From assembly GCA_944358305.1 (NCBI GenBank), contig CALVQK010000005.1:16385-80384 (forward strand): DNA of 64,000 nt. The letters run 5' to 3'. Of this stretch, positions 3,323 through 64,000 are shown piece by piece (position 1 is the stretch's first letter; each line of letters opens with the position of its first letter). The DNA comes from an uncultured Bacilli bacterium (GTDB lineage Bacteria; Bacillota_I; Bacilli_A; RF39; UBA660). The translations under genes and the position numbers were made by a program. The notes below the pieces were generated by a model. The model was not told where the DNA came from and did no database searches. It saw only the letters and a program-made list of their open reading frames with translations.

Positions 3323-4033
3323 ATGTTGTTTAATTTATTTGATAGTTTAAGAGGCTTTTTTACTTTTACAGCTAGTTATTCTAATCAAGTTTTTAAAGAG
3401 CCACTATCAAAAGAAGATGAAGAAGAATGTATTAAAAAGATGGGAGAAGGTGATCTTTTAAGCCGTAATAAATTAATTGAACATAATCTTAGATTAGTTG
3501 CGCATATTGTTAAAAAATTTGATTATAAAAATGTTGATCAAGATGATCTTATTAGTGTGGGAACAATTGGCCTTATTAAGGGAGTAGATACTTTTGTTCC
3601 TAATAAAGGAAATCGTTTAACTACATACTGTGCTAAATGTATTCAAAATGAGATATTAATGTATTTTCGCGCTAATAATAAGAATAATAAAAATATATCT
3701 TTAAATGAACCAGTAGGTTTTGATAAAGAAGGGAATGAAATATCAATACTTGATGTTATAAAAGCACCTAGACCTGACTTTATAGAAGAAATTAATTTGA
3801 AAGACAATGTTAAACTCTTAAATGATTATTTAAAAGTTTTAAGTAAAAGAGAAAGAGAGATAATAGTTAAACGTTATGGCTTAGAAGGAAATGATTTTTG
3901 GACTCAGAAAATGATTGCAGATAAGCTTAATATTTCTAGAAGTTATGTATCGCGGATTGAAAAGAGAGCTTTAACTAAGATACTGAGAGAGTTTATTAAA
4001 AATAACAAGTATAATGATGAAGATTTCAGTTAA
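3323..4033 (+). CDS. sigK: Sporulation sigma factor, SigK-like (pro-sigma with an N-terminal leader).
   Basis: LIEHNLRLVAHIVKKF, DLISVGTIGLIKG, DKEGNEISILDV, ISRSYVSRIEKRAL match region 2/4 motifs of SigK-type sigma-70 factors. It has a short N-terminal pro-sequence. The gene appears intact. Confidence 0.75.
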   Translation: MLFNLFDSLRGFFTFTASYSNQVFKEPLSKEDEEECIKKMGEGDLLSRNKLIEHNLRLVAHIVKKFDYKNVDQDDLISVGTIGLIKGVDTFVPNKGNRLTTYCAKCIQNEILMYFRANNKNNKNISLNEPVGFDKEGNEISILDVIKAPRPDFIEEINLKDNVKLLNDYLKVLSKREREIIVKRYGLEGNDFWTQKMIADKLNISRSYVSRIEKRALTKILREFIKNNKYNDEDFS

Positions 4034-4093
4034 AAATATTAGTGTGTTGTTAATTATCTTTTAACTTGATATACTAATATTAGGAGTGAAATT

Positions 4094-5482
4094 ATGCAAA
4101 GGAAAATAAAGAAAAGACGTATTTCTAAAGGTACTATTTTTTTAAATGTTATTTTTAGTTTTGTATTTGTCTTTTTGTTTTTCCTTTTTTTATTTGTACC
4201 TAAGGTATATTTAAAGGGTGATTATATTGTTAATATTAATGTAGGATCTGTCTATCATGATAAAGGGGTTAAAACTTTAAAAAAGATAAAAACTATTAAT
4301 GAGGTTGATACATCTAAGATAGGAAGTTATGAAGTTAAATATATTTATAGAGATAATTTGTTTAAGTATAATTTTAGTAGAATAGTTAATGTTAAAGATT
4401 TAGAAAAACCTAAAATAGTTTTAGAAGGCGAAGATGTAGAATATTATTGTCCTAACGGAAAGTATCAAGAAAAAGGTTTTAAAGCTTATGACAATGTTGA
4501 TTTGGATATTACTGATAAAGTTAAGATAAAACATGAAAAAGATAACATTACTTATGAAGTTGAAGATAGTAGTGGTAATAGAACTAAAATTATAAGAAAA
4601 CTTAGAGAAGAAGATGTAGAAGCTCCTAGTATTAGTTTAAATGGTGATGATAATGTGTTTATTTCTCTTAATGAATCTTATAATGATACAGGCGTTTTAG
4701 TAACTGATAATTGCGAAGGCGATTTATCTTCTAAAGTTAAAGTAACTAATGAGGTTGATACGACTAAAATAGGCGATTATAAAGTTATTTATGAAGTAGA
4801 AGATAGTAGTAATAATAAGAGTAAAATAGAAAGAAATATTAAGGTTAGAGAGCCTTTAAAAGCTAATACAATTTATCTTACTTTTGATGATGGACCAAGA
4901 GATGGTACTACGGATAAGATATTAGATATTTTGAAAGAAAAAGATGTTAAAGCAACATTCTTTGTTACTAATAATGGTAGTGATCTTTTAATTAAAAGGA
5001 TTGTTACAGAAGGACATTCTATTGGTATTCATACAGCTAGTCATAAATATGATATTATCTATGCTTCAGCAGAAAATTATTTTAATGATTTAGAATTAGT
5101 CCAAAAAAGAATTTATGATAATACAGGTGTTGCTACAAAATTAATTAGATTTCCAGGTGGATCTAGTAATACTATTTCTAAAAAGTATAGTGAAGGGATT
5201 ATGAGTACTTTAACTAGAGAAACTTTAGATAAAGGTTATCAGTACTATGATTGGAATATTGATAGTGGTGATTCATCTTTTGCTACTAATTCTCATAAAT
5301 TATATAATAGTGTTATAAATAGTTTATCTCACGATAAGTATAATGTAATTTTAATGCATGATACAAAAACTTATACAAGAGATGCTCTTTCAAAAATAAT
5401 AGATTATGCTAAAAGTGAAGGATATAGTTTTGATGTTTTAGATATAAATAAAATGCCTTTAAGACAAAAGGTAAATAACTAG
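4094..5482 (+). CDS. Membrane-anchored polysaccharide deacetylase (NodB/CE4 domain) with two Ig-like repeat modules.
   Basis: N-terminal TM. Duplicated NEVDTSKIGSYEVKY / NEVDTTKIGDYKVIY modules. CE4 motifs TFDDGP and H-containing HSIGIHTASH. Confidence 0.75.
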   Translation: MQRKIKKRRISKGTIFLNVIFSFVFVFLFFLFLFVPKVYLKGDYIVNINVGSVYHDKGVKTLKKIKTINEVDTSKIGSYEVKYIYRDNLFKYNFSRIVNVKDLEKPKIVLEGEDVEYYCPNGKYQEKGFKAYDNVDLDITDKVKIKHEKDNITYEVEDSSGNRTKIIRKLREEDVEAPSISLNGDDNVFISLNESYNDTGVLVTDNCEGDLSSKVKVTNEVDTTKIGDYKVIYEVEDSSNNKSKIERNIKVREPLKANTIYLTFDDGPRDGTTDKILDILKEKDVKATFFVTNNGSDLLIKRIVTEGHSIGIHTASHKYDIIYASAENYFNDLELVQKRIYDNTGVATKLIRFPGGSSNTISKKYSEGIMSTLTRETLDKGYQYYDWNIDSGDSSFATNSHKLYNSVINSLSHDKYNVILMHDTKTYTRDALSKIIDYAKSEGYSFDVLDINKMPLRQKVNN

Positions 5483-5548
5483 AAAAACTTAAAAAAATAT
5501 TATATACTAGTTATAAGGGGTATAAAGAGTTATAGAGAGGTGTAGTCT

Positions 5549-6067
5549 ATGAGTAAATATTTACCTGATATTTATAGGAAGAATATTTTTGATATTGACT
5601 ATAATAAATTAAAGAAAAAGGGAATTAAATGTTTAATTTTTGATTTAGATAATACCTTAGCTTTAATTGATTCTGTTAAAGTAGATGTTAAAGTTAAAGA
5701 ATTAATTACTAAACTAAAAAAAGATTTCTTAGTAGTTATAGTATCTAATAGTCCTAAAAAACGAGTTTTAAAGTTTAGTAGTGATTTAGAAGTTGATTCT
5801 TATCCATTTGCATTAAAGCCTACTATTAGAACACTAAAGAAAATAAAATCTAAATATAATTTAGAATCTAAATCTATTGCAATTATAGGGGATCAATTTA
5901 TTACTGATATGGGATATGGCTATAAAGGAAAAATTACAAAAATATTTGTAGATCCTCTTGCTACTAAAGATTTAAAGATTACTAATGTTAATAGGTATTT
6001 AGAAGAAAAGATTATGAATAAATATGATAAAAATAATCTTTTCAAGAAAGGAAATTATTATGAATGA
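5549..6067 (+). CDS. yqeG: YqeG-family HAD phosphatase.
   Basis: LIFDLDNTL HAD motif I, IIGDQ motif. Sits in the conserved yqeG-yqeH pairing. Confidence 0.7.
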   Translation: MSKYLPDIYRKNIFDIDYNKLKKKGIKCLIFDLDNTLALIDSVKVDVKVKELITKLKKDFLVVIVSNSPKKRVLKFSSDLEVDSYPFALKPTIRTLKKIKSKYNLESKSIAIIGDQFITDMGYGYKGKITKIFVDPLATKDLKITNVNRYLEEKIMNKYDKNNLFKKGNYYE

Positions 6068-7064
6068 TGAGAAGTATTGTCTTGGATGTGGGGTTAAACT
6101 TCAAGACGAAAATGTTTTATCTGAGGGGTATACGACTAGTTTAGATAAAGATTATTGTCAAAGATGTTTTAGAATAAAAAATTATGGAGAGTATCAAGTA
6201 GTTACTAAGAGTAATGATGAATATATAGAGATTCTTAAAAGTGTAGGAGAAACTAAAGATTTAGTTCTTTATATAACAGATTTACTTAACTTAGAAGAAG
6301 ATCTTAAAAGAATAAGAGATATTATTCCTAATAAGATGATATTAGTTTTAAATAAAAAAGATGTTTTACCTAAGTCAGTAAAAGATGAAAAGATAATAGA
6401 GTATTTTAATAAGTATGATAATGAATTTTCTAAAGTAGTAGTTATAAGCAGTGAGAAAAATTATAATATAGATTATTTGTTAAAACAAATAAAACTATAT
6501 CAAACTACTAATAATGTTTATGTAGTTGGTCATACTAATGCAGGTAAGAGTACTTTGATTAATAAACTTTTGAGAAATTATTCTACTAGTGATAGAGAAC
6601 TTACTATATCACCACTTCCTTCTACTACTTTAAATACAGTTAAAATAGAAATTAATGAATATTTAACACTTATAGATACTCCTGGACTTCTTGATAGTGG
6701 TAGTATAGTTAATTATATAAATGATGATGATTTTAAGAAAATAAATCCTAAGAAAGAAATAAAGCCTAAGACTTTTCAAGTTAAGAAAGGGCAAAGTATT
6801 ATTGTTGATAAGTTTTTTAGGATAGATTATGTAGAAGGTGAGAAAAATAGCTTTACTTTTTATGTTTCTAATAATTTAAAAGTAAGAAGAATCTCTAGTA
6901 AGCATGATGATTTAAAAGATTTACAGAAAAGAACTTATGAGATGGGATATAATGAAGATTTATGTGTTAATGGGTTAGGCTTTATTAAGATGGTTAATAA
7001 GGGTACTGTTAATATTTATTTAGATTCTAGAGTGAGTACTTATAAAAGAGATAACTTAATTTGA
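6060..7064 (+). CDS. yqeH: Ribosome biogenesis GTPase YqeH. The ORF track start at 6024 is probably too long; ATG at 6060 is more likely.
   Basis: N-terminal zinc ribbon CLGCG..CQRCF, circularly permuted GTPase with NKKD then GHTNAGKSTLIN. Confidence 0.8.
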   Translation: MNDEKYCLGCGVKLQDENVLSEGYTTSLDKDYCQRCFRIKNYGEYQVVTKSNDEYIEILKSVGETKDLVLYITDLLNLEEDLKRIRDIIPNKMILVLNKKDVLPKSVKDEKIIEYFNKYDNEFSKVVVISSEKNYNIDYLLKQIKLYQTTNNVYVVGHTNAGKSTLINKLLRNYSTSDRELTISPLPSTTLNTVKIEINEYLTLIDTPGLLDSGSIVNYINDDDFKKINPKKEIKPKTFQVKKGQSIIVDKFFRIDYVEGEKNSFTFYVSNNLKVRRISSKHDDLKDLQKRTYEMGYNEDLCVNGLGFIKMVNKGTVNIYLDSRVSTYKRDNLI

Positions 7065-7242
7065 CAAGGAATTTTCCTTGTTTTTAGTGCGGATTCTATG
7101 TGTTAAAGAAAAGTGTAAATATGTCGAATATTTTTATTGAAAGGGTCTGCTTATTATGGTAATATTGAGTTAACTATAATAGAAAGAGGAGATATAAATA
7201 TAGAAATGAATATATTTTATCTTTTATTTATAAGGGCTTTGG

Positions 7243-9006
7243 GTGTTAGTCTTTATTAATATTATAGAGGAAGAAGGAGAGGTAAAAGTGAAAAGACGTG
7301 AGAATGTAGTAATAATAGTAATATTAGTGTTAATGCTAGTAGCAATAATAGGTGTAAGTTATGCAGCTTTTAGCTTTAGTCAGCAAGGTAATACACCAAA
7401 TACAATAACAACAGGATCAATAACAATGACATATACAGAAAGTGATAATAAAATAAGTTTGAATGGGGCCTTACCAACAACAGATAAGACAGGAACAGTA
7501 AGATTAACAGCAGGAGAATATTTTGATTTTAATGTTTCAAGTCAAATAACAGGTGATGTAAATATCAATTATGAGATAAGCGCAAAAGAAGTAGGAGATG
7601 GGACGATAGACGGTTCTAATATCAAACTTTATCTAACCAAACTTAATGATGATGGAACTGAAGAAGCCCTAATGGTACCAGAAGTATATAATGTAGAGGC
7701 TAATGCTAATGATTATACAGGTCGTCCTTCAGGAGAGATGAGTTTATATACAAGTAGCATGAACTCTAGTGAATCTAATAATTATAGACTTAGAATGTAT
7801 GTAGATGAAGGATATAATCCTCAAGGAGATGGAGGTAACCTAACCTTTACAGTACAGATAAATGTGTATGGAAAAGCAGGGGACAAGTATGTACCTGAGA
7901 CAACACAAGATATACTTGAAGATAATGAAGTACAAGTAGAAAAAACGCAGATGTTTGATTATGCCAGTAATGGTAGTTATTTAGAGTCTTTTACACAGCA
8001 AGCACCTCAATATGGAACTGATCCTAGTCAGATTACTAGTGGTGTTTATAGTATAGAAGATGCAGATGGAACAAGTTATTATTATAGAGGAAATGTAACA
8101 AATAATAATGTTCAATTCGGCGAATATACAGAAGATTATTATGTATATGATGATGGATATGGTTCTTATTATCAAAGCTTAGAAAGTTGTTTAGAAGCTA
8201 ATGGTGGTAGTGCAGATTGTACTCGAGTTAAGTTAGCGTCAGCTGGTGATAAAATGTACTGGAAGATAGTAAGAGTAAATGGGGATGGAAGCTTAAGACT
8301 AATATATAATGGAACAAGTGCAACACCTGATTTTAGTGATTTAGCTCATTCGTATGCAGTAGGAATAGCACCATATAATTTAGAGTATAACGATCCAAAA
8401 TATGCAGGATATACTTATGACAATGGAACAGATAGTTTTGCAAAAAGAGAAGTAGATACCTGGTACGAAAATTCCTTAGGAGATACAATATATGATAGTA
8501 AGGTAATGGGTGGAAGATTCTGTAGTGATAGTAGTGGCTATAAACTAGCTAGTGAATATGACTTAAATCCAGTTCTATTTGGAGGAGATATAGAAGGTAT
8601 ATATTTGTATTCAAGTTGGGGTGAAAGATTAGGAGGAAGAGTAAAAAATAGTTTTACAGTTAATACTCCGACATTGAGTTGCCCAGATACAGATGAAACA
8701 TATGGAGGAAGTTATAGACTAAAAGCGGGTCTTATTACAGCAGATGAGTTAGCTTTAGCAGGAGAAAGTTTTGGAGTTGTAGGCAATAGTTATTTAAATC
8801 CTGGCGATTTTGAAATGTATTACTGGACTATGACGCCGGCTGCGTTCACGTATGGTGATGCTTATGTTTGGAATGAGTATGTTAGTCTGTTTAACGGCAA
8901 TGTCGTCAACAGTGGTGACGCCGTGCGTCCAGTTATCAATGTGACAACTGATAACGGGTTTGCTAGTGGAGATGGAACTGCTAGTAGTCCATATGTAATT
9001 TCTTAG
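7243..9006 (+). CDS. Secreted TasA/camelysin-like protein with a SipW-cognate-type signal peptide and a DUF1566-like C-type-lectin-fold C-terminus carrying the DGR variable repeat. Likely true start is GTG at 7288.
   Basis: N-terminus KRRENVVIIVILVLMLVAIIGVSYAAFSF matches the SipW-cognate signal class (basic-hydrophobic-GxxYAxF). RBS aggagaggtaaaaGTG. C-terminus YYWTMTPAAF...NGNVVNSGDAVRPVIN resembles DUF1566-type DGR targets. VR lies at 8834..8932. Confidence 0.7.
   Translation: MLVFINIIEEEGEVKVKRRENVVIIVILVLMLVAIIGVSYAAFSFSQQGNTPNTITTGSITMTYTESDNKISLNGALPTTDKTGTVRLTAGEYFDFNVSSQITGDVNINYEISAKEVGDGTIDGSNIKLYLTKLNDDGTEEALMVPEVYNVEANANDYTGRPSGEMSLYTSSMNSSESNNYRLRMYVDEGYNPQGDGGNLTFTVQINVYGKAGDKYVPETTQDILEDNEVQVEKTQMFDYASNGSYLESFTQQAPQYGTDPSQITSGVYSIEDADGTSYYYRGNVTNNNVQFGEYTEDYYVYDDGYGSYYQSLESCLEANGGSADCTRVKLASAGDKMYWKIVRVNGDGSLRLIYNGTSATPDFSDLAHSYAVGIAPYNLEYNDPKYAGYTYDNGTDSFAKREVDTWYENSLGDTIYDSKVMGGRFCSDSSGYKLASEYDLNPVLFGGDIEGIYLYSSWGERLGGRVKNSFTVNTPTLSCPDTDETYGGSYRLKAGLITADELALAGESFGVVGNSYLNPGDFEMYYWTMTPAAFTYGDAYVWNEYVSLFNGNVVNSGDAVRPVINVTTDNGFASGDGTASSPYVIS
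8834..8932 (+). repeat. DGR variable repeat (VR) within the 3' end of CDS 7243..9006, ending in a GC-rich IMH-like 16-mer gacgccgtgcgtccag.
   Basis: 99-nt alignment to 9119..9217 with 18 mismatches. 17 of them fall at positions where the other copy has adenine. Confidence 0.85.
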
Positions 9007-9118
9007 ATAGAATGAGGCAAATGACTCTTCATTTGCCTCGGGGGATTAAACTGTATGTGATGCAGCGTTCTGCTTTGGTATGCTCGTTCGTTGGATCGCG
9101 GAGTGTGGTGAGTGTTCT

Positions 9119-9217
9119 CGCCGGCTGCGTTCAATAATGGTAATGCTAATGTATGGAATGAGAATGATAATCTGAATAACAACAATGTCAACAACAATAA
9201 TGACGCCGTGCGTCCAG
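9119..9217 (+). repeat. DGR template repeat (TR). It is non-coding, adenine-rich (AAT/AAC at the variable positions) and shares the GC-rich 3' 16-mer with VR.
   Basis: In-frame reading gives SPAAFNNGNANVWNENDNLNNNNVNNNNDAVRPD. AAY codons correspond to ACG/TAT/GAT/GTT/AGT/TTT/GGC/GTC/GGT in VR. Confidence 0.85.
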
Positions 9218-9400
9218 ATTCCTACTAAGGTTAGATTAGATCTAATGCCACCGCATTTTGTCGGCTACGGCTTGCAAATAGAGGAAGTTTGAATGGAAAC
9301 AAGTTTAATTCCCGGGTTATTCCCAAATATATAATATAGATGTTCATTGACTTAGAATAAAGTTCTTGGACTATCCCTATATTTCTTTTGATTATAAAAG

Positions 9401-9430
9401 ATAGTGCTAGTGTACTATCTTTTTTATATG
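9401..9430 (+). terminator. Rho-independent terminator about 185 nt downstream of TR (agatagt..actatct plus T-run).
   Basis: 7-bp stem, short loop, then tttttta. Confidence 0.5.
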
Positions 9431-9711
9431 AGGAAGATATATTTTTGAAAGAAAAATTCTTGACCGATTCTATCTTGTATGATACATTAAAGCTAGATGG
9501 GAGACTTGTAAAAAGATGGAAAAGGAAGGAGGAAGAAAAAAGTTAAAAAAGTATGAATTTTGAAAATTGGATATGTATTAAAATAACAATATTTTAAATT
9601 GAACTAGTGAATTAAGAAAATTGATAGGTATTTTTAAGCCTAATTTTCAAAATTATCTTTTTGCAATAACTTTATGTATTTGATAACTTAATTGCAGAAA
9701 GGAGAAATCTT

Positions 9712-10530
9712 ATGAATAAAGTACCTAGATTTATATCATTAATGGCAGATACAACTGCAAAAGCTTTAATTAAAGATGATAACTATAGATGGTTTTACGA
9801 AGACTTAATAAAATTCAAAACAGGTATTATCTTAAATGGTTATAAAGCAATAGATAATGAGCTTAATACTGGTAATAAAGTTAAGGATTATAGAGCAGAT
9901 ACTATATTTCTAAAAAATAATAATTTAGTTAATATAGAATTTAATCAATTTGTTTATGTTCATACTATGATAAAAAACATTAAATATGCTTTAAGGATGG
10001 CTGGCAACGGTTTTTTACAAGGAAAGGATTATTTTCATAGATTTGTAGTTCAAATAAATCTAAATAATAAGGTAATGAGTAGTAATGTCAAGAAATGGAA
10101 TGAAAAAGATTATAAGTTAGAAGATTATAAATCTAAATTATTTTTAAAAGATATAAGAATAATTACTATAGATTTAAGAAAATATAAAGGTATTTGTTAT
10201 GACGGTACTAATAAATATGAAGCGTATCTATCAATGTTAACAGCGGAGTCGTATGAAGAAATGGAAAAAATAATTGGAGATTTAAAGGAGGGTAAAATAA
10301 TAATGGAAAAGTTAAAAGAATTAGGATTAGATGATGAGTTTGGTATGTATTATGATGCTGAGATAGTACATAGAAAAGAATTAAACTCTGTAAAAAAGGA
10401 GGGCAGAAAGGAAGGTAAAATAGAGACAACTACTTCTATTGCTAAAGTAATGCTAAAAGCTGGGGAGAGCGTTAATAAAATAAAGGAATATACTGGCCTT
10501 TCAGAAAAACAAATAAGTATGCTAATGTAA
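9712..10530 (+). CDS. Rpn-family recombination-promoting nuclease/putative transposase (PD-(D/E)XK, YhgA-like), copy 1.
   Basis: C-terminal EGRKEGKIETTTSIAKVMLKAGESVNKIKEYTGLSEKQISML tail (DUF4351-like TGLS..I..L motif) and N-terminal FKxLF-like region. Confidence 0.65.
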   Translation: MNKVPRFISLMADTTAKALIKDDNYRWFYEDLIKFKTGIILNGYKAIDNELNTGNKVKDYRADTIFLKNNNLVNIEFNQFVYVHTMIKNIKYALRMAGNGFLQGKDYFHRFVVQINLNNKVMSSNVKKWNEKDYKLEDYKSKLFLKDIRIITIDLRKYKGICYDGTNKYEAYLSMLTAESYEEMEKIIGDLKEGKIIMEKLKELGLDDEFGMYYDAEIVHRKELNSVKKEGRKEGKIETTTSIAKVMLKAGESVNKIKEYTGLSEKQISMLM

Positions 10531-10714
10531 GGATGATGCAAAAAGTTAAAAAACTTGTAATTTTTAAAATTGACTATACTTTTAAAGACCAATATCTTAA
10601 ATTGAACTAGCCAATTAAGAAAATTGATAGGTATTTTTAAGATCAATTTATAAAATTGTCTTTTTGCAATATCTTTATGTATTTGATAACTTAATTGCAG
10701 AAAGGAGAAATCTT

Positions 10715-11545
10715 ATGAATAAAGTACCTAGATTTATATCATTAATGGCAGATACAACTGCAAAAGCTTTAATTAAAGATGATAACTATAGATGGTTTTA
10801 TGAAGAGGTTATTAAGTTTAGAACGGGTGTTGACTTGAAAGGTTATCAGTTAATGGATCCTGAACTTAATACTGGTAATAGGGGTAAAGATTATAGGTTA
10901 GATTTAATATTTATCAATAAGACTAAGTTATTTAACTTAGAATTAAATAGGTTTGTTTATCCACATACCTTTATTAAAAGTCTTAAATATGCTTTAAGGT
11001 TAGCGGGCAATGGTTATATTAAAGGAGATCAATATTATCAAAGATTTGTAACACAACTTAATCTAAATTATAAAATAATGAGTGAGAAAGTAAAATGGCA
11101 AAACTCGAGAGATTATAAGTTAGAAGACTGTAAATACAAAGATAAATTAAAAGATATAAGAGTATTAACAACAAATTTATTAGATTATAAGGGAATAGTT
11201 TATGATGGTACTAATAAATATGAAACATATTTATCAATGTTAACAGCTGAATCATATGAAGAAATGGAGAAAATAATTGGAGATTTAAAGGAGGGTAAAA
11301 TAATTATGGAAAAGTTAAAAGAATTGGGACTTGATGATGAGTTTGGTGCAATATATGATGAAGAGATAGTACATAAGATGGAGATAAACTCTGCTCGAAG
11401 TGATGGCAGAAAAGAAGGAAGAAAGGAAGGCAAAATAGAGACAACTACTTCTATTGCTAAAGTAATGTTAAAAGCTGGAGAGAGTGTTAATAAAATAAAA
11501 GAGTATACAGGCCTTTCAGAAAAACAAATAAGTATGCTAATATAG
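10715..11545 (+). CDS. Rpn-family nuclease/putative transposase, copy 2. The true start is the second M; the ORF track start at 10664 lies in the duplicated leader.
   Basis: Same N-terminus MNKVPRFISLMADTTAKALIKDDNYRWFYE and the same C-terminal TGLSEKQISML tail. Confidence 0.65.
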   Translation: MNKVPRFISLMADTTAKALIKDDNYRWFYEEVIKFRTGVDLKGYQLMDPELNTGNRGKDYRLDLIFINKTKLFNLELNRFVYPHTFIKSLKYALRLAGNGYIKGDQYYQRFVTQLNLNYKIMSEKVKWQNSRDYKLEDCKYKDKLKDIRVLTTNLLDYKGIVYDGTNKYETYLSMLTAESYEEMEKIIGDLKEGKIIMEKLKELGLDDEFGAIYDEEIVHKMEINSARSDGRKEGRKEGKIETTTSIAKVMLKAGESVNKIKEYTGLSEKQISMLI

Positions 11546-11654
11546 GTTAATAGTGTTTCTATTCTTTAAAAGTTTTAAATATTTCTTTATAATTTGTAAG
11601 AATATAGAGGAGATAGCGAATATATATTTAAAATAGCTAAAGGAGATAATTATT

Positions 11655-11882
11655 ATGGAAAAGTTAAAAGAATTAGGACTTGATGATGAGTTTGGTATGT
11701 ATTATGATGCTGAGATAGTACATAGAAAAGAATTAAACTCTGTAAAAAAGGAGGGCAGAAAGGAAGGCAAAATAGAGACAACTACTTCTATTGCTAAGAA
11801 TCTTCTTAATATGGGTCTTTCTAAACAAGATGTAATGAAAGCGACAGGTTTATCTAAGAAACAACTAACTATGTTAATGTAG
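11655..11882 (+). pseudogene. Truncated third Rpn copy. Only the C-terminal ~75 aa (DUF4351-like tail) is retained.
   Basis: MEKLKELGLDDEFGMYYDAEIVHRKELNSVKKEGRKEGKIETTTSIAK is near-identical to the tail of copy 1. A terminator hairpin follows at 11908..11930. Confidence 0.6.
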
Positions 11883-12025
11883 ATTGGTGGTGTTTTTTAT
11901 ATATTAAGCAGTTTATGACTGCTTTTTTCATGTTAAAAAAATTACTACCAAAAATTGGTAATTTGTTGTACAATAGTATTTGATAAAAATAGAGTAAGGC
12001 TATAGCGATATTTTGGAGTAAAGGC

Positions 12026-12376
12026 TTGGTGGAATTTATGAAGAAGTATACACCTTTAAATATATATAATTTCTATAAAAGAGATTATGCTAAGTACTTG
12101 TTGCTGGTTAAGAAAAAAGATAAACTTATAACTTATAATACTGACGCTAAAATAGTATCTTATCTTTTTAAAATATATTATTTTGAAGAACTTAGTTTAG
12201 ATCAAAATTTGTTAACAGAGTTATTAGAACTTAAAGAAATACATCATTTTAATATTGCTGTAGTCGTCTCCTCTAAAATAAGAGAATATTATTGTTATAA
12301 AAATAGTGATTATTTGAAACTTAAAAATAATAGTAAAAGATATGTTAAAGAATTAGAGGTGATTTCTAATGGATAA
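12026..12376 (+). CDS. Hypothetical 116-aa protein, translationally coupled to avd (stop overlaps the avd start). Possible DGR accessory gene.
   Basis: Overlapping ORFs 12026..12376 / 12369..12728 / 12709..13824 suggest one operon. Confidence 0.35.
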   Translation: MVEFMKKYTPLNIYNFYKRDYAKYLLLVKKKDKLITYNTDAKIVSYLFKIYYFEELSLDQNLLTELLELKEIHHFNIAVVVSSKIREYYCYKNSDYLKLKNNSKRYVKELEVISNG

Positions 12377-12728
12377 GAATGACTCTTTTAAAATTATGAA
12401 GAATACAAAATTACTTGTTTTTGATGTAGTAGAATTTTCTAAGAATTTTCCTAAAGGAGAAGCGGTGTTAAAGAAAAATCTACAGGAAGAGTTATTTAAT
12501 CTTGTTAAATTATTAAATTCATATATTGTTAATAAAGGAAGTGCAAGAATTAAAGAAAAACATGTTAAAGACTTTATTGTTAGTCTTTCGATGGTAGATT
12601 TTTATTTTGAGTATTTATACTTAAATAAAATTATTAGTTTTAAAAAATATAAAGCTTTGGTTGATGATGTTATTACAATTAGAAAGCTTGCTTATGGAGT
12701 ATTAAAAAATGAAAAAGAGTTATCTTAA
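12369..12728 (+). CDS. avd: Accessory variability determinant (Avd)-like protein (four-helix bundle, 23S rRNA IVS protein family).
   Basis: 119 aa, basic. FSKNFPKGE resembles the KFPKxE(R/K) motif of Avd/IVS proteins. Immediately upstream of and overlapping the DGR RT gene. Confidence 0.6.
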   Translation: MDKNDSFKIMKNTKLLVFDVVEFSKNFPKGEAVLKKNLQEELFNLVKLLNSYIVNKGSARIKEKHVKDFIVSLSMVDFYFEYLYLNKIISFKKYKALVDDVITIRKLAYGVLKNEKELS

Positions 12729-13824
12729 ATATGATGTTTTAGTTGATTATGAAAAAGTATTATCTAGTTATAAAGATGTAGTTAGGAATACAGAACACAA
12801 AGAGAAATTGTTTAAATACAATTTGTTTTTGTCTAGTAATTTAATAGAAATATATAATGATTTAAAGAATAAAAAATATCATCATGGTAAATATAATATA
12901 TTCTTAATTAAAGATCCTAAATATCGGGTTATTATGAGTGAAAACTTAAATGATAAGATAGTTAATCAAATGGTTAGTGAACATATTTTAAAGCCAGTTT
13001 TAGAGCCTAGACTTATAGATAGTAATACTGCTACTAGAAAAGATATGGGAAGTAAACATGCCTTTAATTTATGCAAGAAGTATATTATGAAATTAAAAAG
13101 AGAAAATAAAGATATTTATGTTCTTAAGTTTGATATAAAAAAATATTTCTATAATATAGATCATGATATTTTGTTATCTAAGTTAGAGAAGATCTTTGTA
13201 GATAAGGATATTATGGCTTTATTAAAAGATATTATATATAGTTCTAATCTTGCTTATGTTAATAGGGAAATCGATACAATTATAAATAGAGAATTAAAGA
13301 AAGATTTATCTAGTTATCATAAAAGTGAACTTTTAAAAGTACCTAGATATCAATATCATAAAGGACTTGCTATTGGTAATGTTACAAGCCAAATACTTGC
13401 TATCTTTTATTTGAATAGAATAGATCATTTTATTAAAGAAAATTTAGGTTGTAAGTATTATATTCGTTATATGGATGATGGTATTATTTTTGATTATGAT
13501 AAAGAGAAATTAAAACGTATTAAGAGTGCTATTGAGAAGGAACTTTTAAAAGAAAAATTGGAACTTAATAAAAAAACAAATATTTATAAACTTAGTAATG
13601 GTTTTACTTTTATAGGATATAGATTTATTTTAAGAAATAATAAACTTGTTATTAGAATCAATAATAAAGTTAAGACTAGAATTAAGAGAAAGATTAAATA
13701 TTTGAGTGTTTATGATAAAGAGAAACTTATTAGAGTTAAAGCAAGTTACTATGGTTATATGAAAAGAGCATCTACTAAATTCTTACAGCATAAACTTGCT
13801 ATTAAAGATAAGCAAAGTTATTGA
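12709..13824 (+). CDS. DGR-type reverse transcriptase.
   Basis: RT motifs FDIKKYFYNIDHD, the DGR-specific GLAIGNVTSQ (I/LGxxxSQ in place of QGxxxSP), and YIRYMDDGIIF (YxDD). 371 aa with no maturase or endonuclease domains. Confidence 0.85.
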   Translation: MKKSYLKYDVLVDYEKVLSSYKDVVRNTEHKEKLFKYNLFLSSNLIEIYNDLKNKKYHHGKYNIFLIKDPKYRVIMSENLNDKIVNQMVSEHILKPVLEPRLIDSNTATRKDMGSKHAFNLCKKYIMKLKRENKDIYVLKFDIKKYFYNIDHDILLSKLEKIFVDKDIMALLKDIIYSSNLAYVNREIDTIINRELKKDLSSYHKSELLKVPRYQYHKGLAIGNVTSQILAIFYLNRIDHFIKENLGCKYYIRYMDDGIIFDYDKEKLKRIKSAIEKELLKEKLELNKKTNIYKLSNGFTFIGYRFILRNNKLVIRINNKVKTRIKRKIKYLSVYDKEKLIRVKASYYGYMKRASTKFLQHKLAIKDKQSY

Positions 13825-13869
13825 TATTTTTCTTTCTTTATAGTAAAATCTTGTTAAAGGAGAAATGAT

Positions 13870-14415
13870 ATGAATAGTGAATTTATAAATGAAGTAGAAA
13901 ATAAAATGAAAGGGGCTCTTAATAACCTAGAAAAACGTTTTACAACTGTTAGAGCAGGACGTGCTAATCCTTCTAGTTTAGATGGTGTATCTGTTGATTA
14001 TTATGGTTCTATGACGCCTTTAAAAAGTCTTGCTACTATATCTGTTCCAGAGGCAACTCAATTATTAATTAAACCTTTTGATAGAGGTTGTTTGAATGAT
14101 ATAGAGAAAGCAATTATAGCAGCTAATCTTGGTTATAATCCTTCTAATGATGGAGAAACTATTAGAATAGTTATACCAGCTTTAACTGAAGAAAGAAGAA
14201 AAGAACTTACTAAGCAAGTTAAAGCTATGGCTGAGGATGCTAAAGTAGTAATTAGAAATATTAGACATGAAGCTAATGAGAAAATAGAAAAGATGGAATT
14301 ATCTGAAGATGAAGAAAAAGGTATGATGAAGGATGTTCAAGATTTAGTTAATGAATATAATAAAGATATAGATAATCTTTATAAGGATAAAGAGAAGGAA
14401 TTAATGACAGTTTAG
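13870..14415 (+). CDS. frr: Ribosome recycling factor.
   Basis: RANPSSLDGVSVDYYGSMTPLKSLATISVPEA and RNIRHEAN motifs. Confidence 0.9.
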   Translation: MNSEFINEVENKMKGALNNLEKRFTTVRAGRANPSSLDGVSVDYYGSMTPLKSLATISVPEATQLLIKPFDRGCLNDIEKAIIAANLGYNPSNDGETIRIVIPALTEERRKELTKQVKAMAEDAKVVIRNIRHEANEKIEKMELSEDEEKGMMKDVQDLVNEYNKDIDNLYKDKEKELMTV

Positions 14416-14427
14416 AGGTATGTTAAT

Positions 14428-14456
14428 TTGACATTTTCTTTTTAACATGTTATATT
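14428..14456 (+). promoter_or_regulatory. Sigma-A-type promoter (TTGACA, 17 nt spacer, TATATT) driving the repeat RNA and toxN-like gene.
   Basis: ttgacattttctttttaacatgttatatt. Confidence 0.5.
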
Positions 14457-14480
14457 ATGGATACATAAGAGATTATGTTT

Positions 14481-14584
14481 AAAAAAGCTGGTGATTCCAA
14501 CCATAATAGGAACTTAAAAAAGCGGTGATTCCGACCATAACAGGAACTTAAAAAAGAAACTAGAGATGCAAAACTCTAGTTTTT
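14481..14584 (+). ncRNA. Type III antitoxin-like RNA. Two tandem direct repeats (35 nt and 34 nt, aaaaaagc(t)ggtgattccRaccataaYaggaactt) plus a partial third, followed by an intrinsic terminator.
   Basis: Units at 14481..14515 and 14516..14549. Terminator hairpin aactagag/ctctagtt with a T-run at 14558..14584, directly upstream of a ToxN-like ORF. Confidence 0.55.
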
Positions 14585-14646
14585 ATAAATTTCCTATTGC
14601 GAACATTTGTTCTTTTATGTATAATAATTAACTAAGTAAAGGAGGA

Positions 14647-15024
14647 ATGTTTGTGAAACAAGAATTACGTTTAGTTAAAATTGATTCTAATTATTGTGAT
14701 TATTTAAGAAAATATGATTCAAAAGTTCCATATAATTTTGATAGAAAAAGAAATAGACCTTTTGTAGGTGTATTGTTTGAAGTTAATGGGTGTAAATATT
14801 TTGCACCACTTGCTAGTCCTAAGACTAAATATTTAAAAATGCATAATAGTATTGATTTCTTTAAGTTGAAAAACGGAGAACTTGGAGCGATTAATTTTAA
14901 TAATATGATTCCTGTAACATTAAATAATGTTATTATGTTAGAACTTTTGGAAGATAATAAAACAAAAGAGGAAAGAATATATATAAAGATGTTAAAAGAG
15001 CAATTATATTTTGATTGTAAATAA
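14647..15024 (+). CDS. ToxN/AbiQ-family endoribonuclease toxin (type III TA / abortive infection). Likely start is GTG at 14653.
   Basis: KVPYNFDRKRNRPFVGVLFEVNGCKYFAPLASPK closely parallels the ToxN N-terminal core (KVP...F(I/V)G(I/V)..E..G.KY.APL.SPK). AGGAGG lies 9 nt before the GTG. Confidence 0.6.
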   Translation: MFVKQELRLVKIDSNYCDYLRKYDSKVPYNFDRKRNRPFVGVLFEVNGCKYFAPLASPKTKYLKMHNSIDFFKLKNGELGAINFNNMIPVTLNNVIMLELLEDNKTKEERIYIKMLKEQLYFDCK

Positions 15025-15183
15025 AAAACTTCCTATTAATATCTATAATAGATGTTGTAATTTTCTTTTGTTAGAGGAGAAATGTAAAGTTTATAATAAA
15101 TATTTTGAAAATCAAGTATTAAATTGATTTTATTACAGTTATATGTTATAATATAAAGCGTTTTATAAAGGGGTGATGGTACT

Positions 15184-15738
15184 TTGGAAAGAAATATGGA
15201 TGAAGATTTTGATTTGCCTTCAAAAATGCAAAAAATGAGAAAAGATATTGTTTCGGATAGAATAAGAAGTAAAATTAGTATATCTTCTACTGATCTTGAT
15301 CATTTATTAAGAGGGATTAATAAAGATGTATATGATACGATGGATGATTTAGAAGAATGGAATAGTTTAAGAACTAAAATATTATTAAATTTTAATTTAG
15401 GTTTAACTTATGTTTTGCCTAATCGTGAAAATTTTAGAGATATGATATTTGTTGGTAAGCGCAGTGTTGATTTATCTGTTGATAATTATAGAAGAGTATT
15501 AACTGCTGTTGACTTTGTTCATGAGTATAGTATGACAAAAAATATTTATACTTTAATTGATCAGTTATATTATGCCGAAACTCATGCTAGAAATTGCCTT
15601 TATTATATGGATGATTTAAAGGTGAAAATAAATACTAAATACTATGATGGTAAGTTTAATGAAAGATATGTTAAAGAAATGGAAAATAGTAGAGAAAAAG
15701 TTTTATCTTTAGAAAAAAACTATGTGAAGGGGGAATAA
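15184..15738 (+). CDS. Hypothetical protein (184 aa), first gene of a two-gene unit.
   Basis: ORF only. TTG/ATG start with aaagggg RBS. Confidence 0.35.
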   Translation: MERNMDEDFDLPSKMQKMRKDIVSDRIRSKISISSTDLDHLLRGINKDVYDTMDDLEEWNSLRTKILLNFNLGLTYVLPNRENFRDMIFVGKRSVDLSVDNYRRVLTAVDFVHEYSMTKNIYTLIDQLYYAETHARNCLYYMDDLKVKINTKYYDGKFNERYVKEMENSREKVLSLEKNYVKGE

Positions 15739-15740
15739 AA

Positions 15741-16280
15741 ATGCAAGATATGAATCAAGTTGCAGATTTGTATGTTGAAACTACAAAGGCATATTTAGAT
15801 ATTTTAATAGAAAGAGGAGATTTAAAAGCGTGCGAAAAACATTATTTAGAAATATTGGATAAAGTAAAAAAAGAAACTTTAGAAGTTTCTAAAGAGTTTT
15901 CTAAAACTAGAATTATGACTTTAAAAGCTCTTGCTTTTGTTAGTAGAAAACTAAATATTGGTGAAGATTTGAATATTGTAGGTAATGTGGCTCCAAGCCT
16001 TGCGGATACTTTATTAGATAATTATGATCGAGTTAGGAAAGGAATTGCTGTTACTAGTAAAAATATGAGTTATGATAATATTTGTACTTTGATAAGCCAA
16101 AAAGCAGAATCAGATAAATATCTTGTTAGTTTTTCATCATTTCTAGGTGATACAGTTCATGGTTCTGATGGCTTAGGGCCTAGTTACAATTATTATTTAG
16201 CTTGTCAAAATTCTAGAGATAAAATTTTAGAACTTGATTCTAAGTATTGTACAGAAAAGACTAAAGATTTACATTATTAG
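15741..16280 (+). CDS. Hypothetical protein (179 aa), separated from the upstream ORF by 3 nt.
   Basis: ORF only. Confidence 0.35.
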   Translation: MQDMNQVADLYVETTKAYLDILIERGDLKACEKHYLEILDKVKKETLEVSKEFSKTRIMTLKALAFVSRKLNIGEDLNIVGNVAPSLADTLLDNYDRVRKGIAVTSKNMSYDNICTLISQKAESDKYLVSFSSFLGDTVHGSDGLGPSYNYYLACQNSRDKILELDSKYCTEKTKDLHY

Positions 16281-16349
16281 TATTTACAATAAGCTTTTAA
16301 ATGTGGTATAGTAATTTTTGAAATGACTATGATTAAGAAGTAGTAGTAA

Positions 16350-16548
16350 ATGATTTTTTTAAAGAGAGTCTGTGGTTGGTGGAAACAGATAAAAATAGTT
16401 TATGAATTCGTCTTAGGAGTTCCTATAACAAAATTATAGGCGTTGTTTATCGCGTTAAGATTTTAGAGAAATAGTTAATAACTATAAATTAAGGTGGTAC
16501 CGTGTAGAAAACTACGCCCTTAAGTTATAGTTATTTTTTATTTTAGGA
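16350..16548 (+). promoter_or_regulatory. T-box riboswitch leader (tRNA-Phe specifier likely) with terminator/antiterminator, upstream of HAD-pheS-pheT.
   Basis: Conserved T-box sequence aattaaggtggtaccgtg at 16488..16505. Terminator aactataa..ttatagtt plus T-run ends around 16548. A TTC triplet is present in the upstream stem region (gaattcgtc). Confidence 0.7.
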
Positions 16549-16555
16549 GGATTTT

Positions 16556-17188
16556 ATGACTAAACGATTTATTTGGGATTTTGATGGTACTATTGTAGAT
16601 GGAGATTTTTCTCTTGAAGAGAAGTTATTTAAAGATAATTTAAGTGAAGAAGATTTTTTAAGGTTTAATGAGAAGTGGCCTATGTTACTTAGTGTTTATG
16701 AGAAAGAGTTTCCTAGATATGATAGAAGAATGCTTAGTGAATTTCTTAGTACTAGTACCGGTGTTAATATTAGTAAAGAATTAATTGATGAGTGGTCTAG
16801 ATATATGATTAATGTTAATGAGACTATTCATCCTGGTGCTTTTGAAGTGCTTGATTATTTACAGAGTAAAGGAATAGAAAATGTAATTTATTCTAATGCT
16901 TTTACTGATACGCAAATAGGAAGAGTTAAAAAAATAGGACTTGATTCTTATTTTAAAGAAATAATAGGGGCGGAGGTTGCTGTAAAACCAAATTCTTTAG
17001 GATTTATTGCAGCTTGTGGGTCATATAGCCCTAGAGAATGTGTTGTGATTGGAAATGATTATGAGAAAGATATTTTAGGCGCGAAGAAAGCAGGGTTAGA
17101 TGCTATTTATTATTGCCCTAAAGGTTTAGATAAGAAAGTAGATATTCCTAGTGTAAAAAGATTAATTAAGATAAAGGAGATGTATTAA
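16556..17188 (+). CDS. HAD-superfamily hydrolase.
   Basis: IWDFDGTIVDG motif I; GNDYEKD motif IV region. Confidence 0.7.
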   Translation: MTKRFIWDFDGTIVDGDFSLEEKLFKDNLSEEDFLRFNEKWPMLLSVYEKEFPRYDRRMLSEFLSTSTGVNISKELIDEWSRYMINVNETIHPGAFEVLDYLQSKGIENVIYSNAFTDTQIGRVKKIGLDSYFKEIIGAEVAVKPNSLGFIAACGSYSPRECVVIGNDYEKDILGAKKAGLDAIYYCPKGLDKKVDIPSVKRLIKIKEMY

Positions 17189-17189
17189 T

Positions 17190-18239
17190 ATGAATATAGA
17201 AGATATTAAAAAAGAGATAGAAAAAGAAATAGATGCTGTTAAAGATTTAAAAAAATTAAATGAATTACACGTTAAATACTTAAGTAAAAAGGGAATTATT
17301 ACAGAACTTAATAGTAAAATTAAAGATGTTCCTAATGATAAGAAAAAAGAATTTGGAATGGAAGTTAATTCACTAAGAACTTACTTTAATGAAAAGTATA
17401 ATGCCCTAAAAGATAAGTTTGAAGAAGATGAGTTAAATAAAAAACTTGAAAGTGAAGCGATTGATATTAGTTTACCTAGTACTAAGGTAGAAGTTGGGAC
17501 TCCTCATATATTAGAAAAATTAATAGAAGAAGTCGAAGAGATCTTTATGTCGATGGGTTATGATGTTGTTGATGGCCCTGAAGTAGAAGAAGATAAATAT
17601 AATTTTGAAATGTTAAATATACCTAAAGGTCATCCGGCAAGAGATGCTCAGGATACTTTCTATATTGAAGGAGAAGAGATCTTGCTTAGAAGTCAAACAT
17701 CGCCTGTACAAGTTCGTAGTATGTTAAAAGCAGAAGGTAAAAAACCAGTTAGAGTAATTTGCCCTGGTAAGACTTATAGAAGAGATGATGATGATGCAAC
17801 TCACTCTCATCAATTTATGCAAATAGAAGGATTATTAGTTGATAAGGATATTTCTTTAGCTGATTTAAAAGGGACTTTTGAAGTAGTATTTAAAAAACTA
17901 TTTGGAGATAGTGTTGAGGTAAGACTTAGACCTAGTTATTATCCATTTACAGAGCCTTCTGTTGAAGTAGATATTAGTTGTTTTAATTGTAAAGGTGAAG
18001 GATGTAATCTTTGCAAAAATACAGGATTTATTACCATTTGTGGAGCAGGTGTTGTTCATCCTGATGTTCTTCGTATGGGAGGATATGACCCTAAAGTGTG
18101 GAGTGGCTTTGCTTTTGGTTTTGGAGCAGAACGTGTAGCCATGCTTAAATATGGTATTAATGATATTAGAGTTTTCTATAATACAGACTTAAGAGAAGCT
18201 CGTGTATTTGATAGAAAGGAGATTAGTAGTAATGATTAA
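17190..18239 (+). CDS. pheS: Phenylalanine--tRNA ligase alpha subunit.
   Basis: Class II aaRS motifs: HPARD, FRPSYYPFTEPS, GAGVVHP, GFAFGFGAERVAM. Confidence 0.95.
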   Translation: MNIEDIKKEIEKEIDAVKDLKKLNELHVKYLSKKGIITELNSKIKDVPNDKKKEFGMEVNSLRTYFNEKYNALKDKFEEDELNKKLESEAIDISLPSTKVEVGTPHILEKLIEEVEEIFMSMGYDVVDGPEVEEDKYNFEMLNIPKGHPARDAQDTFYIEGEEILLRSQTSPVQVRSMLKAEGKKPVRVICPGKTYRRDDDDATHSHQFMQIEGLLVDKDISLADLKGTFEVVFKKLFGDSVEVRLRPSYYPFTEPSVEVDISCFNCKGEGCNLCKNTGFITICGAGVVHPDVLRMGGYDPKVWSGFAFGFGAERVAMLKYGINDIRVFYNTDLREARVFDRKEISSND

Positions 18240-59261: not shown

Positions 59262-59306
59262 ATATCAACTAATCTAATTGAGCAAAAGTATATAAATGAT
59301 TTAGTT

Positions 59307-63503: not shown

Positions 63504-64000
63504 ATGAAGAAAAAAGAGAATATAGTAATAATAGTACTATTAGTGTTAATGTTAGTTGCTATAATAGGTGTAAGTTATGCAGCGTTTAACTTTAGTCAGC
63601 AAGGTAATACACCAAATAAAATAACAACAGGATCAATAACAATGACATATACAGAAAGTGATAATAAAATAAGTTTGAATGGGGCATTACCTACAACAGA
63701 TAAGACAGGAATGGTAAGATTAACAGCAGGAGAATATTTTGATTTTAATGTTTCTAGTCAAATAACAGGTGATGTAAATATCAACTATGAGATAAGTGCA
63801 AAAGAAGTAGGAGATGGGACGATAGATGGTTCTAATATCAAACTTTATTTAACAAAGTTAAATGATGATGGAACAGAGGAAGCCCTAATGGTACCAGAAG
63901 TGTATAATGTAGAGGCTAATGCTAATGATTATACAGGAAGACCATCAGGAGAGATGAGTTTATATACAAGTAGCATGAACTCAAGTGAATCTAATAATTA
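63504..64000 (+). CDS. 3'-truncated paralog of the DGR target gene (window edge). The N-terminal 165 aa are about 95% identical to the 7288..9006 protein.
   Basis: MKKKENIVIIVLLVLMLVAIIGVSYAAFNFSQQGNTPNKITTGSITMTYTESDNK... Nucleotide identity to 7288..7780 is high throughout. Confidence 0.7.
   Translation, partial: MKKKENIVIIVLLVLMLVAIIGVSYAAFNFSQQGNTPNKITTGSITMTYTESDNKISLNGALPTTDKTGMVRLTAGEYFDFNVSSQITGDVNINYEISAKEVGDGTIDGSNIKLYLTKLNDDGTEEALMVPEVYNVEANANDYTGRPSGEMSLYTSSMNSSESNN

Follow-up and report, generated by a model that had tools for sequence, protein, structure and literature searches.

Organization of the locus

The DNA analysed here is a 64,000-nt stretch from an uncultured Bacilli bacterium (positions 16,385 to 80,384 of contig CALVQK010000005.1, assembly GCA_944358305.1; hereafter the window). 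Within it, a gene for a putative surface protein is followed by a non-coding near-copy of part of its own 3′ end and, further downstream, by a small operon of which the last gene encodes a reverse transcriptase (RT). A preliminary description of this region, made from the letters alone, had proposed a diversity-generating retroelement (DGR), in which a non-coding template repeat (TR) is copied with adenine-specific changes into a variable repeat (VR) of a target gene. This interpretation is supported by the adenine-specific mismatches between the repeats, by the hypervariability of the VR among related genomes, by the similarity of the RT and by the family of the accessory protein Avd. The list of parts in the preliminary description was incomplete, however, as it missed an insertion of Rpn-like genes between the TR and the accessory genes, a structured RNA around the TR, and a paralogue of the target gene at 63504. 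The features of the locus are collected in Table 1.

Adenine-specific differences between the template and variable repeats

Ungapped comparison exactly reproduced the two 99-nt near-identical segments that had been described, with 81 identities and 18 mismatches between VR and TR. At 17 of these 18 mismatches the TR carries an adenine, the remaining one being a T>G difference. As 35 of the 99 TR bases are A, 17 or more of the 18 mismatches would fall on A with a binomial probability of 2.5e-7, so that the tabulation by TR base reveals an adenine-specific pattern and not an even spread over the four bases. The VR lies in frame near the 3′ end of an open reading frame (ORF) ending at 9006, with the TR 186 nt downstream of it, and the homology between both ends abruptly on either side of the 99 nt. 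A self-BLAST screen of the entire window revealed no A-biased repeat pairs besides this one.

When read in the frame of the VR, the TR holds 15 AAY codons, and 33 of its 35 adenines occupy codon positions 1 and 2. The altered VR codons are ACG, TAT, GAT, TAT, GTT, TAT, GTT, AGT, TTT, GGC, GTC, AGT and GGT. The AAY codon design that had been proposed was thus recovered, except that two GTT codons stem from GTA and GAT rather than from AAY. Both repeats are GC-rich (51.5% for the VR and 41.4% for the TR) relative to the window (27.8%), and both terminate in the 16-mer GACGCCGTGCGTCCAG, which contains the palindrome GACGC-CGT-GCGTC and directly after which VR and TR diverge. This common end, previously likened to an initiation of mutagenic homing (IMH) site, is unique to the two repeat ends: even with up to 3 mismatches permitted, the window contains exactly two copies (8917-8932 and 9202-9217), while none were found in 100 shuffles. 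In DGRs, a directional marker of this kind is termed IMH in the VR and IMH* in the TR.

Table 1. Features of the locus, with positions in the window.
Feature	Position	Strand	Remarks
Target (variable protein) gene	7288..9006	+	ORF of 572 aa; VR 25 codons before the stop; N-terminal basic stretch and hydrophobic helix (signal/anchor)
Variable repeat (VR)	8834..8932	+	99 nt; sole site where conspecific contigs depart from the window over 19 kb
GC-rich 3′ end of the VR, IMH-like, GACGCCGTGCGTCCAG	8917..8932	+	No allele varies here, A at 8931 included
11-bp hairpin directly after the target stop codon	9014..9039	+	Near-invariant in 15 related loci, flanking genes only ~80% identical; in minimum free energy and centroid folds
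Adenine-poor 5′ flank of the TR	9060..9118	+	~60 nt, sequence-variable; 5-16% A in 15 loci vs 37.6% in the window
Template repeat (TR)	9119..9217	+	Non-coding; 35 adenines
Conserved structured RNA 3′ of the TR	9218..9383	+	166 nt, seven predicted helices; probable analogue of the BPP-1 DGR RNA spacer
Lineage-specific 2.65 kb insertion	9384..12036	+	Absent from related cassettes, in all conspecific contigs
Terminator-like hairpin and T-run ending the TR transcript	9397..9425	+	Stem in fold; relatives have a different hairpin in the same place, directly before MSL
Rpn-like (PD-(D/E)XK 'putative transposase') genes, tandem, full	9712-10530 and 10715-11545	+	NCBIfam TIGR01784, tandem repeats
Rpn-like C-terminal fragment	11655-11882	+	Precomputed HTH_Rpn_C match on a 75-aa fragment
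Terminator-like site	11906-11924	+	Near the 3′ end of the insertion
MSL (MutS-like) accessory gene	12038..12376	+	112-aa stand-alone MutS-domain-I-like protein, pI 9.3
avd	12369..12728	+	119-aa basic accessory protein, pI 9.5, NFPKGE; NCBIfam DivGenRetAVD E 2.5e-4
DGR reverse transcriptase gene	12709..13824	+	371 aa; IGNVTSQ (residue 222), YMDD (residue 254); Pfam RVT_1 7e-20
Target paralogue, 5′ part	63504..64000	+	Full gene P0017, 560 aa, 78% identical to the target; VR decayed, invariant

Variable repeat alleles in conspecific contigs

The database contains seven relatives of the target protein at 97-100% identity, which are near-identical to it except in the VR-encoded stretch, where they differ strongly. 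The contigs of these relatives were retrieved and compared with the window, resulting in a table of seven VR alleles. Two contigs from other samples (L050 and L051) equalled window positions 1-19000 except for 20 and 23 differences, respectively, every one of which lay inside the VR. Similarly, contigs L056 and L057 showed 3 VR differences from each other, all at TR adenines. Over the seven alleles, 35 of the 99 VR positions varied, corresponding to 33 of the 35 TR adenines and 2 TR thymines. Of the two adenines that stayed constant throughout, one belongs to a GAG codon and the other to the final CCAG. The substitution spectrum amounted to 85 A>G, 39 A>T and 15 A>C changes (139 A>N) versus 3 T>G changes. 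The TR itself was unchanged in every conspecific contig that holds it complete, and while an identical Avd was found on 39 contigs and an identical RT on 11, the window's target allele was found on only 2. Such VR variation between otherwise identical genomes is the population signature of ongoing mutagenic retrohoming, and it bears out the earlier suggestion that diversification is active or recent.

The non-adenine changes in the VR (window 8850 and 8888; TR positions 16 and 54) were all T>G, and the change at TR position 16 was present in two alleles (those of the window and L050), which suggests that misincorporation has a second mode at low level or that the two alleles share the change by descent. 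It was also observed that several target-carrying metagenome contigs break at or just after the VR/TR region, with L055 and L056 ending about 190-370 nt past the target gene. Assemblies would be expected to break at this position on encountering the TR/VR repeat or heterogeneity of the VR within a sample.

Reverse transcriptase and Avd

The ORFs that had been predicted for a 371-aa RT and for a basic 119-aa Avd-like protein with an FPKGE motif overlapping it were both confirmed, including the positions of the two RT motifs. The avd gene overlaps the preceding MSL gene by 8 nt and the RT gene by 20 nt. Among PDB sequences, the RT was most similar to the bRT of Bordetella phage BPP-1 (8ub7 series; E 1.5e-24, versus 1.8e-9 for the best group II RT), with IGNVTSQ aligning on IGSLTSQ and YMDD on YMDD. 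In motif 4, RTs of the DGR clade carry [I/L/V]GxxxSQ where other RTs have QGxxxSP, and IGNVTSQ conforms to the former. Compared with the BPP-1 genome record, the RT is 25% identical to Brt over 350 aa, and BLASTP yielded 105 bits to bRT versus 50 bits to the group II intron RT of a related locus (see below). Moreover, a genome-wide scan for RT similarity gave 48 loci, 29 of which carry their own A-biased TR/VR pair, even though the RT is only 30-48% identical in some of them. These comparisons support the RT grouping with DGR RTs rather than with retron or group II RTs, as had been anticipated.

All nine members of the Avd family that were examined (9/9) matched the NCBIfam model DivGenRetAVD, with a best E of 1.1e-11 and all scores below the curated equivalog cutoff, which supports the Avd identity at the family level. 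Avd-type proteins are small, basic four-helix bundles encoded beside the RT, and the ORF here agrees with them in size, charge and location. A direct search of PDB sequences with Avd returned no meaningful match.

In two related loci (L011:10775-12689 and L012:3838-5753, equivalent to window 13480), the DGR RT gene is interrupted right after RYMD by a group II intron of ~1.9 kb. This intron, present in at least two related species, itself encodes an RT/maturase in an ORF of 438 aa that contains TPQGSIVSP and YADD, so that one retroelement resides inside the catalytic-site codons of another retroelement's RT. An intein was considered as the cause of the in-frame interruption and rejected, as translation yielded stop codons and the group II intron RT. 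The split RT matches (residues 1-260 and 258-367) that were encountered in several metagenome-assembled genomes (MAGs) result from this intron interrupting the RT gene.

A MutS-like protein encoded upstream of avd

The operon at 12026..13824 had been described as encoding Avd and the RT, both of which stand, but its first ORF had been left uninterpreted. This ORF most likely extends from 12038 to 12376 and encodes the MutS-like (MSL) protein, the gene of which adjoins avd in all close relatives and is absent from more distant DGRs. The MSL of the window matches the Pfam MutS_I family (PF01624) at a sub-threshold level only (E 0.36), although divergent members of its family exceed the MutS_I gathering score (23.9-35.6 bits versus a cutoff of 20.6). 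The family is small: one search retrieved 59 proteins, and another, covering 1.8 billion proteins, gave 21 clusters at 50% identity. The sole PDB sequence matches of its profile are to Thermus aquaticus MutS domain I. An AlphaFold2 model built from a 26-sequence alignment predicted a single domain with good confidence (pLDDT 92.9), for which the top 50 of 50 Foldseek matches in the PDB were MutS, MSH2, MSH3 or MSH6 chains.

Unlike MutS domain I in its usual setting, the MSL protein stands alone, without connector, clamp or ATPase domains, and its family profile retrieved no full-length MutS. In the profile alignment with Taq MutS, the mismatch-contacting Phe-X-Glu positions (which we take to be Phe39-X-Glu41 in the Taq numbering) read Lys-Leu-Ile. 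A MutS mismatch-repair ATPase was therefore rejected as an identity for this one-domain protein of 112 aa, which is MutS-like in fold only. None of the cassette ORFs matched HRDC in Pfam.

Small MutS-like proteins have been reported in 16 of 372 DGRs, always together with avd and never with HRDC, in what was named Architecture D (Wu et al. 2018, Nucleic Acids Res 46:11; PMC5758913). The cassette described here is an MSL-containing DGR of this Architecture D, and its MSL belongs to a previously described class. In common with the published cases (PMC5758913), it combines a small (112-283 aa) MutS-like protein with avd in a cassette without HRDC. However, the published MSL proteins have a near neutral pI (7.2 +/- 1.7) while the MSL here is basic, and its clade is narrow and the window protein itself remains under the Pfam MutS_I threshold.

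In engineered E. coli DGR systems, a dominant-negative mutL has been added or mutS deleted in order to preserve the substitutions. Because these systems disable mismatch repair, it is a reasonable idea that the MSL protein may shield a mismatched intermediate. More specifically, the MSL might be a third functional component of the DGR that binds the mismatched heteroduplex of complementary DNA (cDNA) and target or competes with host MutS, so that adenine-derived mismatches evade repair and become fixed. We put this forward tentatively and consider it rather unlikely to be correct as it stands. Bearing on it are the conservation of MSL together with avd and RT across the clade, its predicted fold of a MutS mismatch-binding domain, and the absence of the Phe-X-Glu residues from that fold.

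An insertion between the template repeat and the accessory operon

The order target - TR RNA - terminator-like hairpin - MSL - avd - RT recurred in 17 related species-level loci, each with its own A-biased TR/VR pair. In these related cassettes only ~60 nt lie between the RNA domain and MSL, whereas in the window the homology to the relatives stops at 9383 and restarts at 12037. The intervening insertion carries a terminator-like hairpin at each end and Rpn-like genes that match TIGR01784 with E values of 4e-10, 2.5e-8 and 1e-10 (34-42 bits, below the curated cutoff of 52.1 bits). We regard this insertion as a passenger, because it is absent from every other cassette.

All of the diversified conspecific strains carry the insertion, and diversification therefore postdates it. 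Because all of these contigs carry the insertion yet differ in the VR, the TR RNA must act in trans, from 2.7 kb upstream of MSL-avd-RT. This is in line with the statement of Wu et al. 2018 (PMC5758913) that co-transcription of TR and RT is not required.

Conserved RNA around the template repeat

The intergenic region was examined in an alignment of 15 related loci. Directly after the target stop codon, it contains a hairpin that could be a terminator and/or a hairpin associated with retrohoming, followed by a conserved GGGGATTAAACTGTA box and by the adenine-poor stretch that flanks the TR on its 5′ side. Despite its variable sequence, this flank was T/G-rich in the window and in the 14 other related loci. 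Its low adenine content may be relevant to the stop of reverse transcription or to the avoidance of mutagenised run-on cDNA.

On the 3′ side of the TR, positions 9218-9383 are conserved better than the neighbouring protein genes. RNAalifold predicted seven helices with 46 pairs for this domain, with 99.3% of the cells of the alignment paired under this structure. Seven pairs showed compensatory double changes, compared with 0-1 after displacing the partners by 1-3 columns, and a value of 7 was reached in 0 of 500 shuffles, with the caveat that the structure and the covariation test derive from the same alignment. The single-sequence fold of 9007-9430 had a z of -4.6, and no Rfam family matched the TR-flanking RNA. 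The spacer of the BPP-1 DGR RNA binds RT-Avd and supplies the priming site, and we infer from its position that the 3′ domain corresponds to this spacer.

The target gene and its paralogue

The VR had been placed in the 3′ end of a coding sequence at 7243..9006. While this location holds, the start of the gene is most likely the GTG at 7288, as called by gene callers, which matches the start of database protein P0001 (100% identical, 572 aa) and the ATG of the paralogue. The acidic target protein (pI 4.2) has MKRRENVVIIVILVLMLVAIIGVSYAAF at its N-terminus, where a hydrophobic helix follows a basic stretch, and is beta-rich in a low-confidence AlphaFold2 model. Although it has more than 5307 database relatives, no significant match was obtained in Pfam, NCBIfam or PDB sequence profile searches; hhalign against BPP-1 Mtd found nothing either, and the distant RT loci provided no distant homologues able to deepen the alignment. 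The target is probably a secreted or membrane-anchored surface protein and a putative host- or partner-binding adhesin. Judging from the codon table, its 15 AAY codons, each able to specify 15 amino acids, together with another two to three codons containing A, would give rise to a repertoire of ~1e18-1e19 sequences.

The paralogue at the end of the window shares 96% protein identity with the target over the 165 N-terminal residues present there. Its full-length copies (in L052/L053) retain the IMH-like GC-rich 19-mer, but their VR-like stretch is one codon shorter and has 24 mismatches with the TR, only 15 of which are at A. This stretch was identical in two samples. A second currently active target was therefore rejected, given the decayed VR with its non-A mismatches and the lack of variation between samples. 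From these sequence comparisons, we read the paralogue as a former or foreign-TR target that is probably not currently rewritten by this TR.

Host and genomic context

Housekeeping genes flank the cassette. Upstream there is a gene for a GTPase resembling YqeH, and on the downstream side come frr and then pheST, the latter preceded by a T-box leader. The closest loci stem from MAGs of faecal and gut samples labelled as uncultured Bacilli, Tenericutes or Candidatus Onthousia. In IMG/VR, no close relatives of the RT were found, the matches there being only 26-27% identical. Because of these flanks and the lack of close viral RT relatives, the element is chromosomal, and a prophage-borne DGR was rejected for this locus. 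Two relatives (L012 and L013) share the frr side of the locus, while the others have no nucleotide similarity in their flanks. Since the flanks of most relatives are dissimilar, the cassette occupies more than one genomic context. A literature search for DGRs in the host lineage (RFN20) found nothing.

A number of other features were observed in the surroundings. The T-box leader upstream of pheS/pheT lies at 16320-16524 (Rfam RF00230, 119.8 bits). Just downstream of frr, at 14479-15024, there is a type III toxin-antitoxin-like module consisting of a 34-nt tandem repeat (14479-14556; 2.3 copies, 93% matches), a terminator-like hairpin and a ToxN_toxin gene (14647-15024; Pfam E 1.9e-32 over 115 of the 159 profile positions), the latter being split in two in the conspecific contig L049. 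About 1.8 kb upstream of the target, the gene at 4094-5482 encodes a surface protein that combines Bact_surface_Ig-like repeats with a polysaccharide deacetylase domain, and internal direct repeats are present at 4537-4841. Finally, 58832-60650 is a tandem duplication with a period of ~940 nt and copies that are 77-88% identical, next to a weaker third partial copy near 62302.

Interpretation and alternative explanations

We interpret the region, with a probability of about 0.95, as an active chromosomal DGR of the MSL-containing architecture (target - TR RNA - MSL - avd - RT), the host being an uncultured gut bacterium of the Bacilli that has a low GC content and is related to Candidatus Onthousia. 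The parts of the element, its adenine specificity, its ongoing natural diversification and the conservation and covariation of its RNA were all observed at this locus or in its relatives. By analogy with the BPP-1 DGR, a non-coding RNA of ~9040-9425 would be transcribed that comprises the 99-nt TR and the conserved seven-helix 3′ domain. RT and Avd would bind this RNA in a ribonucleoprotein, which could be primed from the 3′ domain, and would reverse-transcribe the TR while misincorporating opposite template adenines only. The mutagenised cDNA would then integrate in place of the VR in the target gene, with the direction of transfer presumably set by the IMH-like GC-rich 3′ end common to VR and TR and by the divergence right after it. 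As a result, 15 AAY codons and a few GAY/GAG/GTA codons near the C-terminus of the target would be recoded, allowing ~1e18 or more possible ligand-binding variants, while the TR and the protein scaffold would stay constant. The part played by MSL in this scheme is speculative; as a conserved third accessory factor, it would likeliest handle or shield the mismatched cDNA/target heteroduplex.

Several observations weigh against this interpretation or qualify it. Promoters were not located, since the scan for the sigma-70 consensus gave 46 sites versus 44.7 expected in shuffles and is uninformative in such AT-rich DNA. With regard to Avd, the single-sequence match of the window protein to DivGenRetAVD falls below the NCBIfam cutoff and its hhalign comparison with BPP-1 Avd is weak (E 0.011). 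The variable residues of DGR targets are typically, though not strictly by definition, displayed on a C-type-lectin or Ig-like fold. Here, the AlphaFold2 model of the target (66 close homologues) was too poor to use, with a pLDDT of 40.5, and DUF6273 was the sole, weak domain hint for the VR region (E 0.024). Furthermore, the 3 T>G changes at two TR thymines indicate that mutagenesis is not strictly adenine-only or that these changes arose independently.

Could the pair of repeats be the relic of a DGR in which diversification has ended, for example because the Rpn-like insertion uncoupled the TR from the RT operon? The fact that this 2.65 kb block parts the TR RNA from MSL-avd-RT and is bordered by terminator-like sites at either end would fit such a fossil, as would the paralogue at 63504, which itself resembles a fossil VR. 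However, strains with this same insertion, whose sequences agree over 19 kb in all other respects, differ at 20-23 VR adenine positions, L056 and L057 differ from each other at TR adenines only, all ORFs are intact and the TR is invariant, making a fossil highly improbable. The VR diversity could also be ascribed not to reverse transcription but to paralogous surface-protein genes exchanging sequence by homologous recombination or gene conversion, as the same genome harbours a 78% identical paralogue 56 kb away and the family is large (more than 5307 members). Yet gene conversion would transfer differences at any of the four bases and reach past the repeat, whereas the variation is limited to 99 nt with 139 of 142 changes where the TR has A, and the non-A differences that set the VR of the paralogue apart from the TR were found in none of the seven alleles. 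We therefore give this explanation almost no credence. Because the alleles differ at TR adenines in otherwise identical backgrounds, both the fossil and the gene conversion explanations were set aside in favour of an active DGR.

It might still be argued that the RT is of a different retroelement class, whether that of group II introns, of retrons or of Abi/DRT defence RTs, and only happens to lie near the repeats. Indeed, no DGR RT model in the NCBIfam library matched it, and its strongest matches there were group_II_RT_mat (E 5e-29) and Drt3a (E 5.5e-16), both far below their cutoffs. Among solved structures, on the other hand, bRT is ahead of the group II RTs by 15 orders of magnitude and shares the aligned SQ-type motif, while a true group II intron RT, the one that interrupts the RT gene in relatives, scored only 50 bits. 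Moreover, the RT lacks a maturase/X domain, the locus lacks intron RNA, and the 17 related loci have kept the RT together with avd, MSL, TR and target, all of which renders a coincidental RT of another class exceedingly unlikely. A last alternative concerns the Rpn-like nuclease genes, which could have been co-opted by the DGR, e.g. to nick or recombine at the target and thereby promote cDNA integration. Rpn-family proteins are annotated as recombination-promoting nucleases according to their family names, and the block is situated exactly between two functional modules, disrupting neither, and is kept in all diversifying conspecific strains. Against such a role, the block is absent from all 17 related cassettes, which likewise have A-biased TR/VR pairs; its copies are tandemly duplicated with one truncated, as is typical of selfish or decaying insertions, and their family matches are below cutoff. 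Co-option thus appears very unlikely to us, and we retain the passenger interpretation.

Comparison with known systems

The locus does not change the current picture of DGRs. It is, rather, a very clean natural working DGR in a little-studied lineage of small-genome gut Bacilli, in which backgrounds of 19 kb that are identical except for differences confined to the 99-nt VR provide a natural time-lapse of mutagenic retrohoming. Its split layout demonstrates in a natural setting that a TR RNA and an RT operon lying 2.7 kb apart still work. For mechanistic purposes, the cassette offers a rare MSL gene and a compact covarying RNA domain beside the TR. The function of the MutS-like accessory protein is its most interesting point, for the study of which the cassette is well suited. 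Should the proposed anti-repair role be true, this compact natural cassette would be a direct test bed for the integration and fixation of cDNA, the step of retrohoming that is still unresolved.

Compared with the prototype DGR of BPP-1 (mtd-avd-TR-brt), the locus has the same adenine-specific flow from TR to VR, a VR at the 3′ end of a gene for a known or putative ligand-binding protein, a GC-rich common 3′ end of the repeats, a basic Avd-type protein and an RT with [I/L]GxxxSQ and YMDD motifs. Both also have a structured RNA 3′ of the TR, here in a position comparable to that of the spacer. However, the element is chromosomal here and phage-borne in BPP-1, and its TR, which is 99 nt long compared with 134 nt in BPP-1, is located upstream of avd instead of between avd and the RT gene. 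It has an additional MSL gene, and its RNA and protein genes are set apart by the 2.65 kb insertion. At the protein level, the two RTs are only 25% identical, the similarity between the Avd proteins can hardly be detected and the target has no detectable similarity to Mtd.

Chromosomal DGRs of gut bacteria such as those of the Bacteroides pilus-tip proteins (bioRxiv 10.1101/2024.11.15.621889) likewise reside in a gut host, target a surface protein and show VR differences from strain to strain. They differ from the present element in host lineage (uncultured Bacilli/'Tenericutes' MAGs here), in target family and in accessory genes. What is new about the present locus is thus its host lineage and its uncharacterised target family, while the system type and the architecture class to which it belongs were already known.

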